A stretch of DNA of 64,000 bases, taken from positions 14,410-78,409 of the forward strand of contig CAOKET010000002.1 in NCBI GenBank assembly GCA_948467605.1. Reading direction: 5' to 3'. Position numbers and translations under genes: made by a program. Under the pieces are notes generated by a model. The model did no database searches, had not been told where the DNA came from, and saw nothing but the letters and a program-made list of their open reading frames with translations. Shown here one piece after another: positions 1,354 to 41,148 of the stretch. Position 1 is the first letter of the stretch. The number at the start of each line of letters is the position of its first letter. Source of the stretch: an uncultured Mycoplasmatota bacterium. GTDB taxonomy: Bacteria > Bacillota_I > Bacilli_A > RF39 > UBA660.

Positions 1354-1557
1354 TCATTTTATCTTCCTTGTAATTATAAAGCCATCTATATCAGGCATCA
1401 TAACATCTAGTATTGCTAGATCTATATTTAAATTATCTATATCAGTTAATACATTTTTACTACTGTAATATTTATATACATTATAGTTTTCATTTTTTAA
1501 GTATATTTCTATTAAATCTGCGATTTCTTTTTCATCATCTACAACAAGAATATTCAT
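1354..1557 (-). pseudogene. Truncated response-regulator receiver domain (67 aa)
   Basis: MNILVVDDEKEIADLIEIYL...LDVMMPDIDGF is a canonical REC N-terminus (DD acidic pocket, phospho-accepting D in LDVMMP) but stops after about 67 aa. There is no output domain. Confidence 0.55.
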
Positions 1558-1687
1558 AAGTACCTACTTAAAAATAATATTATACCTTACTTTATATATT
1601 ATTAAAATTGCATTTTACATTTTGAGTAAAACTTATTTTATATATAATGTAAAAGAGAAGATAATATATCTTCCCATAATTTATACA

Positions 1688-2149
1688 TTAGTCTATATTT
1701 ATATTTACACTACCAAAATAATTACGTGCTTTTATTATTAAATAGTTACTACCATCTTTTATATTAAGAGCAAATTCATATTCACCACTTTTTGTTGCAA
1801 GTATTTTTTGTTTTCCCTTTAAATTCATAATTACTTCTATATCTCCTGAATAATTATCTATACGTAATTTAATGTGTATTGTTCCACCATTTTCTCTTTT
1901 TAGCGTTGTTCCACCAAATAATATTTCTTTTCCATTAAAGTTTTTATACTTTGCTTCATAAGTTCCTACATAATGGTCTTCCCCAAATTTGCGTTTTCCT
2001 TTTAAAGTTATATTATTAGTTAGAATTAAATCCCCAATATTTTTATTTATATTATCATAAGTATTAATAATCATGTTCTTACTACATCCTTGGCAAAGTA
2101 CTATACTAATTACTAATGTAAGAGCAAGAAACCATATTTTTTTTATCAT
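1688..2149 (-). CDS. Lipoprotein of unknown function, downstream of the Bce-type transporter
   Basis: Signal peptide with a lipobox-like LCQGCS. 153 aa. Same strand as the upstream ABC transporter, 19 bp downstream of it. Confidence 0.5.
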   Translation of the reverse strand: MIKKIWFLALTLVISIVLCQGCSKNMIINTYDNINKNIGDLILTNNITLKGKRKFGEDHYVGTYEAKYKNFNGKEILFGGTTLKRENGGTIHIKLRIDNYSGDIEVIMNLKGKQKILATKSGEYEFALNIKDGSNYLIIKARNYFGSVNINID

Positions 2150-2168
2150 TTAATCATCTTCCTCAAAG

Positions 2169-4235
2169 TTATCTATCCTTAATAATATTTTTACTGCAAA
2201 TATATGTAATTAGAAAATATCCACCATATATAATAACGATTACACTAGCAGTCATGATAATTGATGGTAATAATTGATTTGTACCAAAAGAGGATAATAT
2301 ATAATTGCAAAATTTAATTCCAAAAACGGAATGAATAATTGCAATTAATAATGGGAACATAAAGAATATAGCAATTTGATTAAATAACGCTTTATTCAAC
2401 GATTTTTCATCTGTTCCTATTTTTCTTAGTACTATAAATCTTTCTTTATTGTCTGTACTTTCTGACAATTCCTTTAACGCTAGTATTGCAGCACTACTAA
2501 TTAGGAAAATTATACCTAAATAAATACCAATAAATGTTACCATTGCACCAAGTCCTACACTTGATTCATATATGTGTAACTTTGTTGCTGTTTGTAAGTT
2601 AGTCATACTAGCATATGGATGACTTTCAATACTTCGAACTATGTTTTCTATATTTTCTTTTTCCTTCTCTATTTTTACATTATAATTTCCAATTATTACA
2701 CTTTGTATACGAATTGACTCATCAACAGCATTATCTGGTACTATGAATATTCCAGTATTCATATGATTACTAGACATATGATAAAATCCATTTATAACTT
2801 TATCGTACTTTGGGCTATAAGTTTTGCCTAGTAATGTAATAGGAGTATTTAATTTTAGAGATTCATTTCTCATTATATTTGTCTGTTCATAGTCAGCTAT
2901 TATGATATATTCATCGTCATTCAATGATAATTCATCTAAGTTAAATAATCTTGCTATCTTGTTATAATCACTTAATTTTATAAACTCTTCTTTCGCATTA
3001 AAGTCTGCAAGTGGATAGAGTCTATGTGCCTCATCATAATATGAACCTAGTGTGTCTTTAATTAAAATGTCATCAGTGGAATATGTATTAAATTCTATTA
3101 TATCTTTTAAATATTTATCTATATCATAATCTAATTTTTCTAGGGTTTCTCTTGCTGATATTTTGGAGTCTTCAATCATATTTATATTATATCTCCAATT
3201 AGAATTTGCAATTTCTTCGGTCAAATCTAATGTTTTATAAAATTCAACATCAGCAGGTGCAAGTGTTTTTAAATTATGTGTCATAGAATTTTTGATAGAT
3301 AATGCACTAGATAATACACATATTGTTACAAAAAGCATTAAACATATAATTGTCATTGATACAACTGTTGTATTTATCTTGCTACTTAATTGTCTTAAGG
3401 TAAAACTGTTTAGTCCCCTATAATAAAGTTTTTTCATACTCATTACTATTTTTAGTATTAAGCCTGATAAAGACCAAAATATAAGAAATGTCGATACTGC
3501 ACCCATTATTATTGGTTTAAATATCTCAACTGCATTTGCTAGAGAGTTAATTCCATTAGTAACTAGGTAATAGGCGTACCCTAAGATACATGATGATATT
3601 ATAAATATTATTATACAAATAATAGGATTTTTTAGTTTTATTTTTTCAGATTTTTTACTTCCATGAATCAAGTCTATAAGTTTACATCTACTAACATTAA
3701 TCGTATTAAATATCATTACGAATAAATACATAATACCAAAATAAATTAATGTTTTAATAAATGAACTATTAGAGAATATAAATGTGAATTTAGTTAAATC
3801 TGCTTCAAACATATTTGCAACAAGTATACTCATAAACTGTGATAGTATAATACCAATCGCAAGTCCAACTACAAGTGATATAATTCCTATAAAAAGTGTT
3901 TCAACAAATAAAATCATAGATATTTTTCTTTTACTCATACCTAAAGTTAAATATATTCCAAATTCTTTTTTCCTTCTTTTTATTAAAAATCTACTTGCAT
4001 ATATTATTAAGAAACCAAGTATAAATGCAATAAAAACACTTACACCTGATAATAAATTAGTCATTAATTTTATAATGTCTCTTGTATTTGAACTTACATT
4101 CATCATAACAGTTTGACTATCAAGAGCATTAAATATATAAAATATTGCAACTCCAAGAATAAGTGTAAAAAAGTAGATGGCGTAATCTTTAAAACTTTTT
4201 CTTATGTTTTTTAATGATAATTTAAATAACATCAC
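2169..4235 (-). CDS. BceB-type ABC transporter permease (FtsX-like, 10 TM with a large extracellular domain)
   Basis: 688 aa. The pattern of TM helices and a roughly 200-aa soluble loop between TM7 and TM8 is typical of BceB/VraG. Its start overlaps the end of the ATPase gene by 14 nt. Confidence 0.8.
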   Translation of the reverse strand: MMLFKLSLKNIRKSFKDYAIYFFTLILGVAIFYIFNALDSQTVMMNVSSNTRDIIKLMTNLLSGVSVFIAFILGFLIIYASRFLIKRRKKEFGIYLTLGMSKRKISMILFVETLFIGIISLVVGLAIGIILSQFMSILVANMFEADLTKFTFIFSNSSFIKTLIYFGIMYLFVMIFNTINVSRCKLIDLIHGSKKSEKIKLKNPIICIIIFIISSCILGYAYYLVTNGINSLANAVEIFKPIIMGAVSTFLIFWSLSGLILKIVMSMKKLYYRGLNSFTLRQLSSKINTTVVSMTIICLMLFVTICVLSSALSIKNSMTHNLKTLAPADVEFYKTLDLTEEIANSNWRYNINMIEDSKISARETLEKLDYDIDKYLKDIIEFNTYSTDDILIKDTLGSYYDEAHRLYPLADFNAKEEFIKLSDYNKIARLFNLDELSLNDDEYIIIADYEQTNIMRNESLKLNTPITLLGKTYSPKYDKVINGFYHMSSNHMNTGIFIVPDNAVDESIRIQSVIIGNYNVKIEKEKENIENIVRSIESHPYASMTNLQTATKLHIYESSVGLGAMVTFIGIYLGIIFLISSAAILALKELSESTDNKERFIVLRKIGTDEKSLNKALFNQIAIFFMFPLLIAIIHSVFGIKFCNYILSSFGTNQLLPSIIMTASVIVIIYGGYFLITYICSKNIIKDR

Positions 4236-37102: not shown

Positions 37103-38365
37103 TTAACTATATGTCTTCATTTTAATATTTCTTCCTGTTAATTTATTTATAAATCTTAATTTCATAGTTTGATATGTATAATTAGTAACTGGTATATCAT
37201 TATCTCTTAAGTAATCAATAAACCCTTGTTTTTCTTCCTTAGTTATTAACCTCTCTTCACCATTTACTAATACACGATTTTGAGCATTTAACTCTTTTTT
37301 TTCGTTAAACGGTGCTTTTTTTATAAAATGGTAACTCTTCGATAAAACAACTCTTAAATTAAGTATTTGCGATTCTTTTTCTAGTGATTTTGATGCAGAT
37401 GTAACAAAGTATTTTGGATCTGTTTTTGCAATCATATAATAATCTAATATATCAAATTCTCTTATATAATCTTGCTCATCTACTCCACTTTCAATCATTT
37501 TTTCCATTTGAAGTGCCAATGCTGCATATTTTTCACTTTCTAAAGTTTTATTTCTATTTAATAATTCTATATATTCATTGTGCATTTCTAAGCTATATTT
37601 TTTGATTCTTAATAAAATAATCTCAATTTCTTTTTCTTCTATATTATGAGTTTTACGATATGTATATATACTGTTACCGCTTTTGATTATATTCTCTATC
37701 AACTCTATTTCTTCTTGTGGTTTTTTTGGTTCTTGTGGTTTTTTTGGTTCTTGGGTTTTTATATTTGAAGGTCTATTTGTGTTAAGCATGCGTTCATGAA
37801 ATTCTATATATTTTTCTAATTTATTTAATAAAAATATTCTTTTTGATTCATCAAAGTCAGTTAATATATGTTCTTTTAATATTCGTATGCTTACTCTTTT
37901 TTCAAAATAATACTGAAAAACTTTTATTTCATCTTCCTCATACAGTCTATTTATTAGTTTATTATATATTTTATCAAATCCTAAAGTTTGTTTTCTTAAT
38001 CCTATATCCGATTCTTTTTCTTCTAATAAGTGCTTATGTTTTTTTCTTTCCTCATCTGATGCATATGATCTTAAATATTTTGTAATTATAGTACTATGCA
38101 TATGATTGATTGTTTCTAATTCATATTTCATTACAATTTGCATTACATCCTCATTATTTTTTACTGCTTCTAGGTATTCATCAAATATTTGCTTTAATCT
38201 CAGACCTTCAATATCCTTTTTTAAACTTCTAAGAATTTCCAATACACTTTTATAATTTTTATTTGAAATATCTTCTTCATACTTTGATTTTATTTCATCA
38301 GACGAGGTTGATTTTAGTAGTTCTTCATATTTTTTTAATAAATCTATTTTTGTATATCCTTTCAT
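37103..38365 (-). CDS. Hypothetical protein with an internal PKKPQE tandem repeat
   Basis: An 18-bp tandem repeat at 37724-37759 encodes EPKKPQEPKKPQ. Otherwise helical, with no family recognised. Confidence 0.45.
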   Translation of the reverse strand: MKGYTKIDLLKKYEELLKSTSSDEIKSKYEEDISNKNYKSVLEILRSLKKDIEGLRLKQIFDEYLEAVKNNEDVMQIVMKYELETINHMHSTIITKYLRSYASDEERKKHKHLLEEKESDIGLRKQTLGFDKIYNKLINRLYEEDEIKVFQYYFEKRVSIRILKEHILTDFDESKRIFLLNKLEKYIEFHERMLNTNRPSNIKTQEPKKPQEPKKPQEEIELIENIIKSGNSIYTYRKTHNIEEKEIEIILLRIKKYSLEMHNEYIELLNRNKTLESEKYAALALQMEKMIESGVDEQDYIREFDILDYYMIAKTDPKYFVTSASKSLEKESQILNLRVVLSKSYHFIKKAPFNEKKELNAQNRVLVNGEERLITKEEKQGFIDYLRDNDIPVTNYTYQTMKLRFINKLTGRNIKMKTYS

Positions 38366-38434: not shown

Positions 38435-40318
38435 TTATTTTGAAATTAATTCACAAATAATATTACTTATTTCAGTTGGATTTTCTATTGTAAGCCCTTC
38501 TATTAATCTTGCTTGTGAATATAAAATTTTAGTATATTTATCAAATGTATCTTTATCTTCTTTATATAGTTTTATTAATTTTTCTGCAATTGGATGGTTT
38601 TCATTTATTTCTAATATTGTTTTTGCATGTATTTTTTCATCTGTTGGCATAGCATTTATAACTTTTTCCATCTCAATAGATATATCTCCTTCTGTAGTTA
38701 AACATAGTGGATGATTTTTTAATCTATTTGTAAATCTTACACTTTCTATTTTATCTTTTAATACTTCTTTCATACTAGATAACATATCTTTATTTTTGTT
38801 ATTTATTTTTTCTAGTTTTTCTTTTTCTTTAGCATCTCCTAAGTTTACATCTTTTGAGCAAATATTAACAAAGTTTTTATTTTCATAGTTCATTAAAGTT
38901 TTTATAACAAATTCATCTACATATTCAGTTAAGTATAAAATATCATAACCTTCATCTTTAACTTGTTCAACTTGTGGTAACATATCTATTTTATCAACAG
39001 TTTCACCACATGCGTAATATATTACTTCTTGTCCTTCATTTATTTGTTCAATATATTCTTTTAAAGTAATATAATCTTTTTTGTTTGATGAGTAGAACAT
39101 TAATAAATCTTGTAACTTTTCTTTATTCATTCCATAGTCATTATAAATTCCATATTTGATTTGTGTTCCAAAAGTTTTAAAGAATTTTTGATATTCTTCT
39201 CTATTATCATTTAACATATCAAGCAACTCTTTTTTAATTTTAGTTTCTATGTTTTTAGCGATTATTTGTAATTTTCTATCTTGTTGTAACATTTCTCTTG
39301 AAATATTTAATGAAAGATCTGGACTTTCTACTATACCCTTTACAAAATTAAAGTAATCTGGTAATAGTTCACTACATTTATCCATTATCAATATATCATT
39401 TGAATATAGTTGTAATCCTTTCTCATATTCTTTTGAGTATAAATCGTATGGAGCATGATTTGGTATAAATAAGATTGATGTATATGTACAATTTCCTTCT
39501 ACTGATGTGTGCATTACTTTCATTGGCTTTTCATAATCATAGAATTTATCTGTATAAAAATTCGAATATTCTTCTTCTGTTATTTCATTTTTATTTTTTT
39601 TCCATATTGGAGTCATACTATTTAAAGTATTATCTTCTATAACAGTTTCGTATTCATCTTTAGATCCTTCTTTTAATACTCTATTTTCTACTTTCATAAT
39701 TATTGGATATCTAATATAATCCGAATATTTTTTTACTATACTTCTAATTTTGTATTCTTCTAAATAATCACTATATTTTACATCTTCAGTATCATCTTTT
39801 ATGTTAAGTGTTATAGTAGTACCATTAGTATCCTTAGTTGCTTCTTCTATAGTATATCCATCTTCTCCACTAGATTTCCAAAGATATGCCTTATCACTAC
39901 CATAACTTTTAGATAATACCTCAATACTTTTACTTACCATAAATGCAGAGTAAAATCCGACACCAAATTGTCCAATTATATTTACATCTTCTTGTTCTTC
40001 ATTCTCTTGTTTAAATGCTAGGGATCCACTTTTAGCAATAGTACCTAGATTATTTTCTAGTTCACTATCTGTCATACCACAACCATTATCTGATATAACG
40101 ATTTTTCTATTTTCTTTATCAATATCTATCCTTATATTTAACTCATCTTTAGATATACTTATATTTTTTTCTGTAAGTGATTTGTAGTATAATTTATCAA
40201 TCGCATCACTTGCATTTGAAATAAGTTCTCTTAAAAATATATCTTTATTTGTATATATAGAATTTATCATTAAATCAAGTAATCTTTTTGATTCTGCTTT
40301 AAATTCTCTTTTTTTCAT
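38435..40318 (-). CDS. htpG: Chaperone HtpG (Hsp90)
   Basis: FLRELISNASDAIDKL (Hsp90 signature), IGQFGVGFYSAFMV. 627 aa. Confidence 0.95.
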   Translation of the reverse strand: MKKREFKAESKRLLDLMINSIYTNKDIFLRELISNASDAIDKLYYKSLTEKNISISKDELNIRIDIDKENRKIVISDNGCGMTDSELENNLGTIAKSGSLAFKQENEEQEDVNIIGQFGVGFYSAFMVSKSIEVLSKSYGSDKAYLWKSSGEDGYTIEEATKDTNGTTITLNIKDDTEDVKYSDYLEEYKIRSIVKKYSDYIRYPIIMKVENRVLKEGSKDEYETVIEDNTLNSMTPIWKKNKNEITEEEYSNFYTDKFYDYEKPMKVMHTSVEGNCTYTSILFIPNHAPYDLYSKEYEKGLQLYSNDILIMDKCSELLPDYFNFVKGIVESPDLSLNISREMLQQDRKLQIIAKNIETKIKKELLDMLNDNREEYQKFFKTFGTQIKYGIYNDYGMNKEKLQDLLMFYSSNKKDYITLKEYIEQINEGQEVIYYACGETVDKIDMLPQVEQVKDEGYDILYLTEYVDEFVIKTLMNYENKNFVNICSKDVNLGDAKEKEKLEKINNKNKDMLSSMKEVLKDKIESVRFTNRLKNHPLCLTTEGDISIEMEKVINAMPTDEKIHAKTILEINENHPIAEKLIKLYKEDKDTFDKYTKILYSQARLIEGLTIENPTEISNIICELISK

Positions 40319-40356
40319 TCATCTCATCCTTTCAGTTGATTTTACCAACTAATATT

Positions 40357-40398
40357 GTTATACTACAATAAATAGCACTTGTCAAGTGCGAGTGCCAG
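40357..40398 (-). promoter_or_regulatory. htpG promoter (-35 TTGACA, 17-nt spacer, -10 TATAAC) overlapped by a CIRCE-like inverted repeat
   Basis: aTAGCACTt-gtcaagtgc-GAGTGCcAg at 40372-40398, against the CIRCE consensus TTAGCACTC-N9-GAGTGCTAA (14/18 matches, exact 9-nt spacer). The -35 lies inside the element. RBS AAGGATGAG follows. Confidence 0.45.
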
Positions 40399-40400
40399 CC

Positions 40401-40430
40401 AAAAAAAACATAACTAATACTTATTAGTTA
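40401..40430 (-). terminator. Intrinsic terminator of the upstream hypothetical gene
   Basis: AACTAATA-ct-TATTAGTT hairpin, followed on the minus strand by a U8 run. Confidence 0.5.
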
Positions 40431-40470
40431 TATCTTGTTTTATCTAACATTTCTTTATATAATTTGCAAT

Positions 40471-41148
40471 TTAAAATTTACATATTACATACCTTTTTAT
40501 ACTATTTTGTTGTTTTCCTTTAACATAGTCTTTATCTATAATTACATTATCTAGGTGGTCCATATTTATTGACCCTCGAAATATTTTTCTCTCATTTTTA
40601 CACATTGCACGAAATTCTTTATATTCTTCACTTGTAAGTGTCAGTCCATTATTTGTCCTATTTTGTAATATATTAATAGACTTTACTAAACTTGAATTAA
40701 ATAAATCTATTATATTATGAAAATCTTTATAATTTGTTCTTAATGGTATATAGTTTACTTGTGTTTCAATTCTCATAGTTGATGCTTGTATTAATGTAGA
40801 TGCAGAGTGTTCTATTGCTCTTGCATTGTATAGTGAGTCATACATATCCATATTAGTTTCTTGCAAGTTTAATATTATTTTATCAAAACCTAGATTTATT
40901 ATTTTATTTATTTCACTTTTTGATATGTGTTCATATTCACCCTTACTATTTTTCCTTATTCCATTTGTAATAAAACTTAAGTTTATTAAATTACATCTGC
41001 AATATCTAATTATATATAAAAGAGTATCATTATCATAATTCTCTTCATCTATTACTGTTATTTCTTTTATACCTTTGATTCTTTTTATTATGTTTTTAAA
41101 CGTTTCTTGTTCAATTTCACTTGTTTTACAATATATTCTTTTTTGCAT
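40471..41148 (-). CDS. Hypothetical protein (225 aa)
   Basis: ORF only. Confidence 0.4.
   Translation of the reverse strand: MQKRIYCKTSEIEQETFKNIIKRIKGIKEITVIDEENYDNDTLLYIIRYCRCNLINLSFITNGIRKNSKGEYEHISKSEINKIINLGFDKIILNLQETNMDMYDSLYNARAIEHSASTLIQASTMRIETQVNYIPLRTNYKDFHNIIDLFNSSLVKSINILQNRTNNGLTLTSEEYKEFRAMCKNERKIFRGSINMDHLDNVIIDKDYVKGKQQNSIKRYVICKF

Follow-up and report, generated by a model that had tools for sequence, protein, structure and literature searches.

The inverted repeat at positions 40372..40398 of the analyzed DNA (the whole stretch of 64,000 nucleotides, here called the window) is probably a functional HrcA operator of the CIRCE type that is fused to the predicted sigma-A-type promoter of htpG and represses this gene. 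On the basis of sequence comparison we assign this reading a probability of roughly 0.78. It is well supported because the element is conserved at htpG and because the same module fronts other heat-shock genes. The positions of the features involved are listed in Table 1.

Table 1. Features of the htpG upstream region and of the hsp20-linked copies of the module in related loci.
Feature	Position	Strand	Remark
Predicted HrcA operator, CIRCE-like inverted repeat	40372..40398	minus	14/18 consensus match, 9-nt spacer
CIRCE left arm	40398..40390	minus	CTGGCACTC
CIRCE spacer	40389..40381	minus	GCACTTGAC
CIRCE right arm	40380..40372	minus	AAGTGCTAT
-35 hexamer TTGACA	40380..40385	minus	overlaps spacer bases 5-9 and right-arm base 1
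-10 hexamer TATAAC	40357..40362	minus	17 nt after the -35 hexamer
Putative ribosome-binding region AAAGGATGAG	40323..40332	minus	read from sequence, inferred
htpG, Hsp90-family chaperone, 627 aa	38435..40318	minus	Pfam HSP90 and NCBIfam equivalog
Intrinsic terminator of the upstream 225-aa gene	40401..40436	minus	14-bp AU-rich stem, then U8
Upstream neighbour, 225-aa ORF	40471..41148	minus	no Pfam family; bounds the intergenic region
hsp20-linked module	L006:2124-2150, L008:1497-1523, L013:2136-2162	opposite to htpG	

The element is best read on the minus strand (40398..40372), which is the strand of htpG, as cTgGCACTC-N9-aAGTGCTAt. With respect to the consensus TTAGCACTC-N9-GAGTGCTAA, each arm matches at 7 of 9 positions and the spacer comprises exactly 9 nt. 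A first-pass annotation of the window had given the plus-strand string aTAGCACTt-N9-GAGTGCcAg, which is the correct reverse complement of this element, and its count of 14 matches at 18 positions was confirmed by direct reading as well as by a consensus scan. The mismatches are C1, G3 and T27, all at outer positions, and A19, where the G of the consensus is replaced by A. The core GCACTC/AGTGC is fully intact, and the two bases GG are located directly 5' of the left arm. The overlap with a TTGACA box that the annotation had proposed holds, as the hexamer (40385..40380) lies inside the CIRCE (40398..40372). The distance of 55 nt to htpG stated there is approximate: the ATG lies 53 nt from the end of the CIRCE and 38 nt from that of the -10 hexamer. 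The element at 40372..40398 is best regarded as a degenerate yet real copy of CIRCE on the htpG -35 box.

The promoter had been described as well spaced. TTGACA-17-TATAAC can indeed be read from the sequence, and the same spacing is usual in relatives. The right arm of the CIRCE and TATAAC (40362..40357) are separated by TTTATTGTAG. The TTGACA/TATAAC pair is absent from the output of a consensus promoter scanner, which misses it because position 6 of the -10 hexamer is C and not the usual T. Transcription of htpG is predicted to start near 40350, about 7 nt after TATAAC. The ATG is located at 40318, and the 38-nt leader counted from the end of the -10 hexamer holds AAAGGATGAG. The encoded protein was identified as HtpG by a match to Pfam HSP90 at 9.4e-116 and by the NCBIfam equivalog NF003555 (HtpG) with 687.9 bits against a cut-off of 371. 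An Rfam search of the window gave no match.

The predicted terminator of the upstream gene (40401..40436) folds at -10.4 kcal/mol with z = -5.0, none of 200 shuffled sequences being as stable, and it sets htpG apart from upstream transcription. A much smaller hairpin could be formed within the operator itself, where GCACTT-GAC-AAGTGC (40389..40375) is a short perfect palindrome. This palindrome might bind a different dimeric regulator, or it might form a small hairpin or terminator that affects transcripts reading through from the upstream gene. A terminator scan flags its 6-bp stem and 3-nt loop, which are followed by TATTTATTGT, and the structure folds at -6.2 kcal/mol (z = -2.35). However, the 6-bp stem is specific to the window, whereas relatives have 1-3 bp (5 bp in two of them) and conserve the 9-N9-9 arrangement instead. 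The palindrome is largely a by-product of placing TTGACA beside AAGTGC. Moreover, the T-tract after the hairpin is poor and interrupted, and the far better terminator with its 14-bp stem, U8 and z = -5 is located 12 nt earlier. As an intrinsic terminator, 40375-40389 was rejected on account of its weak stem, interrupted T-run and lack of conservation and of the proper terminator just upstream. Since the palindrome is not conserved in relatives, a separate role for it is very improbable. A sigma-54 promoter in cTGGCAC-N-TTGAC was likewise rejected: the distance between GG and TTG exceeds the required one by two bases, and GA instead of GC would stand at the -12 position.

The two genes flanking htpG, which encode proteins of 420 aa (37103-38365, minus strand) and 225 aa, match no Pfam family. 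The 420-aa gene starts 69 nt downstream of htpG, and the trio of 225-aa gene, htpG and 420-aa gene shows synteny in L001-L003, three metagenome contigs that come from the same species. The composition of the plus strand of the window is asymmetric (T 42.9%, A 31.8%, C 14.8%, G 10.5%), and nearly all long ORFs are located on the minus strand. This makes it probable that the window is part of a single replichore in which genes are strongly co-oriented.

The region upstream of htpG was compared among relatives that were collected by searching genome contigs with the HtpG protein as query. This yielded 80 loci, 79 of which were evaluable. All 80 belong to MAGs of gut or rumen origin that were deposited under the names uncultured Bacilli, Tenericutes or Clostridia; they mostly have a G+C content of 24-35%, and the best HtpG identity is 83%. 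Within the 300 nt upstream of htpG that were searched, a CIRCE with 0-5 mismatches occurs in 67 of the 79 loci and ends 23-85 nt before the htpG ATG. Most relatives share a common design, TTAGCACTC-N3/4-TTGACA-AGTGCTAA followed by a -10 box. The position of the -35 box within the operator is similarly constant: among the 61 unique 27-mers of the relatives, 43 have the start of TTGAC at position 14 and 13 have it at position 15. Of 62 related sites, 55 show a distance of 17 nt between -35 and -10, 36 have a TG-extended -10, and eight have TATAAC as in the window, at equal spacing. When the window was aligned with six relatives (HtpG identity 65-83%), 24 columns were invariant, and these are essentially the two arms, the -35 and the -10, with few isolated exceptions; the flanks are unalignable.

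Some relatives depart from the common design. Two of them (L022 and L077) harbor a perfect consensus CIRCE before htpG, and in these as well as in L041 the perfect or near-perfect canonical CIRCE has no embedded -35. Tandem CIRCEs were observed upstream of htpG in L023 and L043 (3891-3957 in both), where a near-canonical CIRCE is followed at a distance of 13 nt by another one with embedded -35.

How often such a site would occur by chance was estimated by base-composition arithmetic and by 300 first-order Markov simulations. At the G+C content of the window (25.3%), 0.14-0.15 sites with four or fewer mismatches are expected per 64 kb, and the chance of such a site in a given upstream region of about 150 nt is approximately 3e-4. 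In a scan with the palindromic consensus, the htpG CIRCE was the sole site with four or fewer mismatches in the 64 kb. A 3-Mb genome of the same composition would nevertheless contain about seven of them by chance, which gives some room to the view that the repeat is a fortuitous resemblance in AT-rich intergenic DNA with no regulatory role. As a whole genome would contain several chance sites, the comparative evidence is decisive. The conservation at 67 of 79 orthologous loci and the heat-shock genes found behind the same module are incompatible with a chance origin, and its probability is negligible.

The consensus scan detected no second CIRCE in the window, and tblastn with approximate queries detected no groES, groEL, dnaK or hrcA there. 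The same was sought by consensus scan and tblastn in the 80 related loci, again with no result. The window was also extended by 10 kb at each end through contigs encoding its terminal proteins, and neither a chaperone gene nor a CIRCE is present in these roughly 10 kb on either side. A gene pair of cotJB and a cotJC-like Mn-catalase was observed approximately 4 kb beyond the 3' end of the window (L207:11877-12916), a hint that genes of the spore coat may persist in this low-GC 'Bacilli' MAG lineage.

The four mismatches place the window CIRCE among the most degenerate of 68 compared sites. This raises the question of functional decay, in which the operator would have drifted at C1, G3, T27 and the shared A19, HrcA binding would be weak or absent, and htpG would be largely constitutive or otherwise controlled. 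Its closest relative, L004 with 83% HtpG identity, has drifted too and carries three mismatches (AACTGCCAA), and the two arms of the window site are complementary at only 6 of 9 positions. However, the positions that are invariant in the lineage (G4, C5, A6, T22, G23 and C24) are intact, as is the core. The deviations C1, G3 and T27 concern positions that are worth about 1 bit each, and equal substitutions are seen in relatives that keep the site. A19 is common to most relatives, because the -35 hexamer is written into the first base of the right arm. This was quantified with a position weight matrix of the lineage that was built from the 61 unique related sites, leaving out the window site: the window CIRCE scores 32.6 bits, clearly more than the 15.8-23 bits of the weakest conserved sites, and the next match in the window reaches 9.9 bits. 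In addition, the CIRCE block can still be aligned, although the intergenic DNA around it has become too divergent for this. Decay is thus a serious residual rival to a working HrcA operator, although an unlikely one.

The second-best match to the lineage matrix, TTAGTAATTAGTATAGTACTTTGCCAA at 2090-2116 on the minus strand, lies inside or at the start of a 153-aa ORF (1688-2149). Its score is far below those of the conserved sites, and it is probably due to chance.

Several related sites upstream of htpG (L012, L015, L017, L025, L053, L054, L055, L068 and L078) show half-sites that have changed together, with TTAGCAAT(T/C)...AATTGCTAA compared to GCACT...AGTGC, so that dyad symmetry is kept; this form can also be given as TTAGCAAT-N-ATTGCTAA. 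An A at position 7 goes with a T at position 21 (counts 8/4/11/38; Fisher p = 0.0055, uncorrected for phylogeny). These paired changes could reflect an altered HrcA specificity in those lineages, or merely weaker sites.

It was also considered that htpG might be controlled by CtsR or by a Bacillus-type class IV mechanism, the CIRCE-like repeat being irrelevant. The class IV element of B. subtilis is GAAAAGG. Downstream of the -10 hexamer, the only resemblance to it is GAAAGG inside the ribosome-binding site. The CtsR operator was sought as the tandem heptad RGTCAAA-NAN-RGTCAAA; no box with three or fewer mismatches is present in 40319-40470, and matches across the window are at chance level (18 vs 15.2 expected). 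What speaks for class IV control is the precedent of B. subtilis, where htpG is HrcA-independent and the single member of that class (PMC3408451, citing Versteeg 2003). The premise of the first-pass annotation that Bacillus htpG is not controlled by HrcA is therefore right. For the htpG of the window, control by CtsR or a class IV mechanism in place of HrcA is nonetheless hardly to be expected, while an additional regulator beside HrcA is possible.

The combination of CIRCE and embedded -35 is also found at other heat-shock genes. In three MAGs (L006, L008 and L013) it precedes a gene for a 130-aa Hsp20-family protein located approximately 1.8-2.4 kb from htpG. These copies read TTAGCACTC-acta-TTGACA-ACTGCTAA, followed by TGgTATTAT. 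Among the 12 loci without a CIRCE directly before htpG, five appear to be linked to clpB. L066 harbors a perfect CIRCE (1231-1257) before clpB (ORF 1387-3969, 860 aa), which is directly upstream of htpG, and a perfect CIRCE is present at the corresponding position in L051 (1268), L059 (1243), L070 (1231) and L073 (1290); the clpB gene was checked with Pfam in L066 only. In these Oscillospiraceae and Acutalibacteraceae MAGs, clpB and htpG are separated by about 30 nt, an arrangement that suggests a clpB-htpG operon under the control of CIRCE.

To extend the comparison beyond htpG loci, metagenomes were scanned for the exact pattern TTAGCACTYNNNNTTGACAANTGCTAA, which represents the -35-embedded CIRCE, and at least 120 loci were obtained. 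The pattern was chosen from htpG sites, and nothing in it forces chaperone genes to occur downstream. The first downstream ORF was classified in the orientation of the embedded -35 box. Among the matches listed, Hsp20 was the commonest, with 50 of 114 ORFs, followed by ClpB-like proteins of about 700 aa (33) and HtpG (15). HrcA and a FUSC-family membrane protein were each found six times, the latter on near-identical contigs from several samples, GroES and a DnaJ/CbpA-like protein once each, and two ORFs were unclassified; at six further listed loci no ORF was callable. Two of the HrcA ORFs were checked by Pfam, and both match PF01628. On L084, L110, L111, L138 and L190 hrcA is followed by dnaK, and three of these contigs have 25-32% G+C. 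As the module precedes hrcA itself, it would act in autoregulation, which is a hallmark of the HrcA/CIRCE system. As judged from these gene contexts, the scan shows the predicted module to be a heat-shock operator-promoter that also serves an autoregulating hrcA operon.

The FUSC-family protein (340 aa, Pfam FUSC_2) is the first ORF on L087, L100, L127, L165, L185 and L187. It is reminiscent of CAC2705, a membrane protein of C. acetobutylicum that has its HrcA site in common with groESL (PMC3828012). The ClpB-like proteins (L090, L120, L126, L130 and about 30 others) mostly comprise about 700 aa, while the L066 protein has 860 aa. As their alignment to ClpB extends over almost their entire length, they appear to be shortened relative to canonical ClpB, with the N-terminal domain as a possible missing part.

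The geometry of the htpG site suggests a mode of repression. The left arm immediately precedes the -35 box. TTGACA itself takes up the end of the CIRCE spacer and also provides base 1 of the right arm, the remainder of which occupies the first part of the -35/-10 spacer. If transcription starts near 40350, the operator would cover approximately -48 to -22 and would be centered on the -35 box. In the established model of HrcA repression titrated by GroEL (Mogk et al. 1997), GroEL keeps HrcA active. At normal temperature, a dimer of the active repressor would be bound on the -35 box and block RNA polymerase; by excluding region 4 of sigma, the bound dimer would occlude the promoter. Upon heat, unfolded proteins would titrate GroEL, HrcA activity would be lost and htpG would be transcribed. 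Repression by occlusion of the -35 box is the most likely effect of HrcA on htpG. For this mechanism we infer that the genome encodes HrcA and that HrcA binds the version with four mismatches.

In B. subtilis, CIRCE follows the -10 hexamer, near or beyond the start of transcription, and is part of the transcript. By contrast, the window CIRCE is centered on the -35 and would not be transcribed. The class I operators of dnaK and groE in B. subtilis likewise combine the 9-N9-9 structure with a sigma-A-type chaperone promoter. In Mycoplasma, a member of the Mollicutes with reduced genomes, CIRCE is found upstream of dnaK, clpB and lon; to our knowledge, no htpG is present in the reduced-genome Mollicutes with expanded HrcA regulons. 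These Mollicutes resemble the relatives studied here in having CIRCE at chaperone and protease genes beyond groE and dnaK, which in these relatives are clpB and hsp20. The htpG of B. subtilis stands outside the HrcA regulon (class IV, PMC3408451), whereas the htpG of the window has a predicted operator.

Predicted operators at clostridial htpG genes are already published. In C. acetobutylicum, conserved HrcA sites were described upstream of hrcA-grpE-dnaK-dnaJ, groESL, CAC2705 and htpG (CAC3315), and genes with HrcA sites were co-induced under stress (Wang et al. 2013, PMC3828012). C. cellulovorans has exactly three perfect CIRCE matches, at groE, dnaK and hsp90 (Clocel_0510) (Costa et al. 2021, PMC8336468). 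Target gene and type of repressor site are the same as in the window, but the clostridial sites are exact or near-exact copies of the consensus compared to four mismatches in the window, and the host belongs to an uncultured lineage of gut MAGs (25% GC; deposited under 'Bacilli' or 'Tenericutes') and is not a cultured Clostridium. The expectation of the first-pass annotation that the site extends the HrcA regulon is thus valid against the B. subtilis paradigm, but not in general, given the published clostridial sites (PMC3828012, PMC8336468). As htpG of these two clostridia has already been placed in the HrcA regulon, the window site is a further example of a known arrangement in an uncultured lineage. 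What appears mildly new is the conserved fusion of CIRCE and -35 and its wide use at hsp20, clpB and htpG in low-GC gut MAGs, together with a hint of paired half-site changes.

The findings do not overturn the current understanding of HrcA. They indicate that the class IV htpG of Bacillus is the exception and not the rule among low-GC Firmicutes. A wider reading, which we put forward only tentatively and consider rather doubtful, is that low-GC gut Firmicutes, here the MAGs deposited as uncultured Bacilli, Tenericutes or Clostridia, have rebuilt their heat-shock regulon around one CIRCE/-35 cassette before hsp20, clpB, htpG and hrcA-dnaK, with HrcA as master regulator. If this were true, HrcA would have taken over genes that are controlled by CtsR, sigma-B or the class IV mechanism in Bacillus, and the paired half-site changes (GCAAT...ATTGC) would reflect an HrcA specificity that co-evolves with its operators. 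For the organism itself, the predicted site would provide htpG with a regulator and a mechanism in a gut lineage about which no experimental knowledge exists. The operator model derived for the lineage, TTAGCACTC-N4-TTGACA-AGTGCTAA with a -10 box of the form (TG)nTAnnAT about 9 nt further downstream, may be used to annotate the heat-shock regulons of hsp20, clpB, htpG and hrcA-dnaK in gut MAGs.
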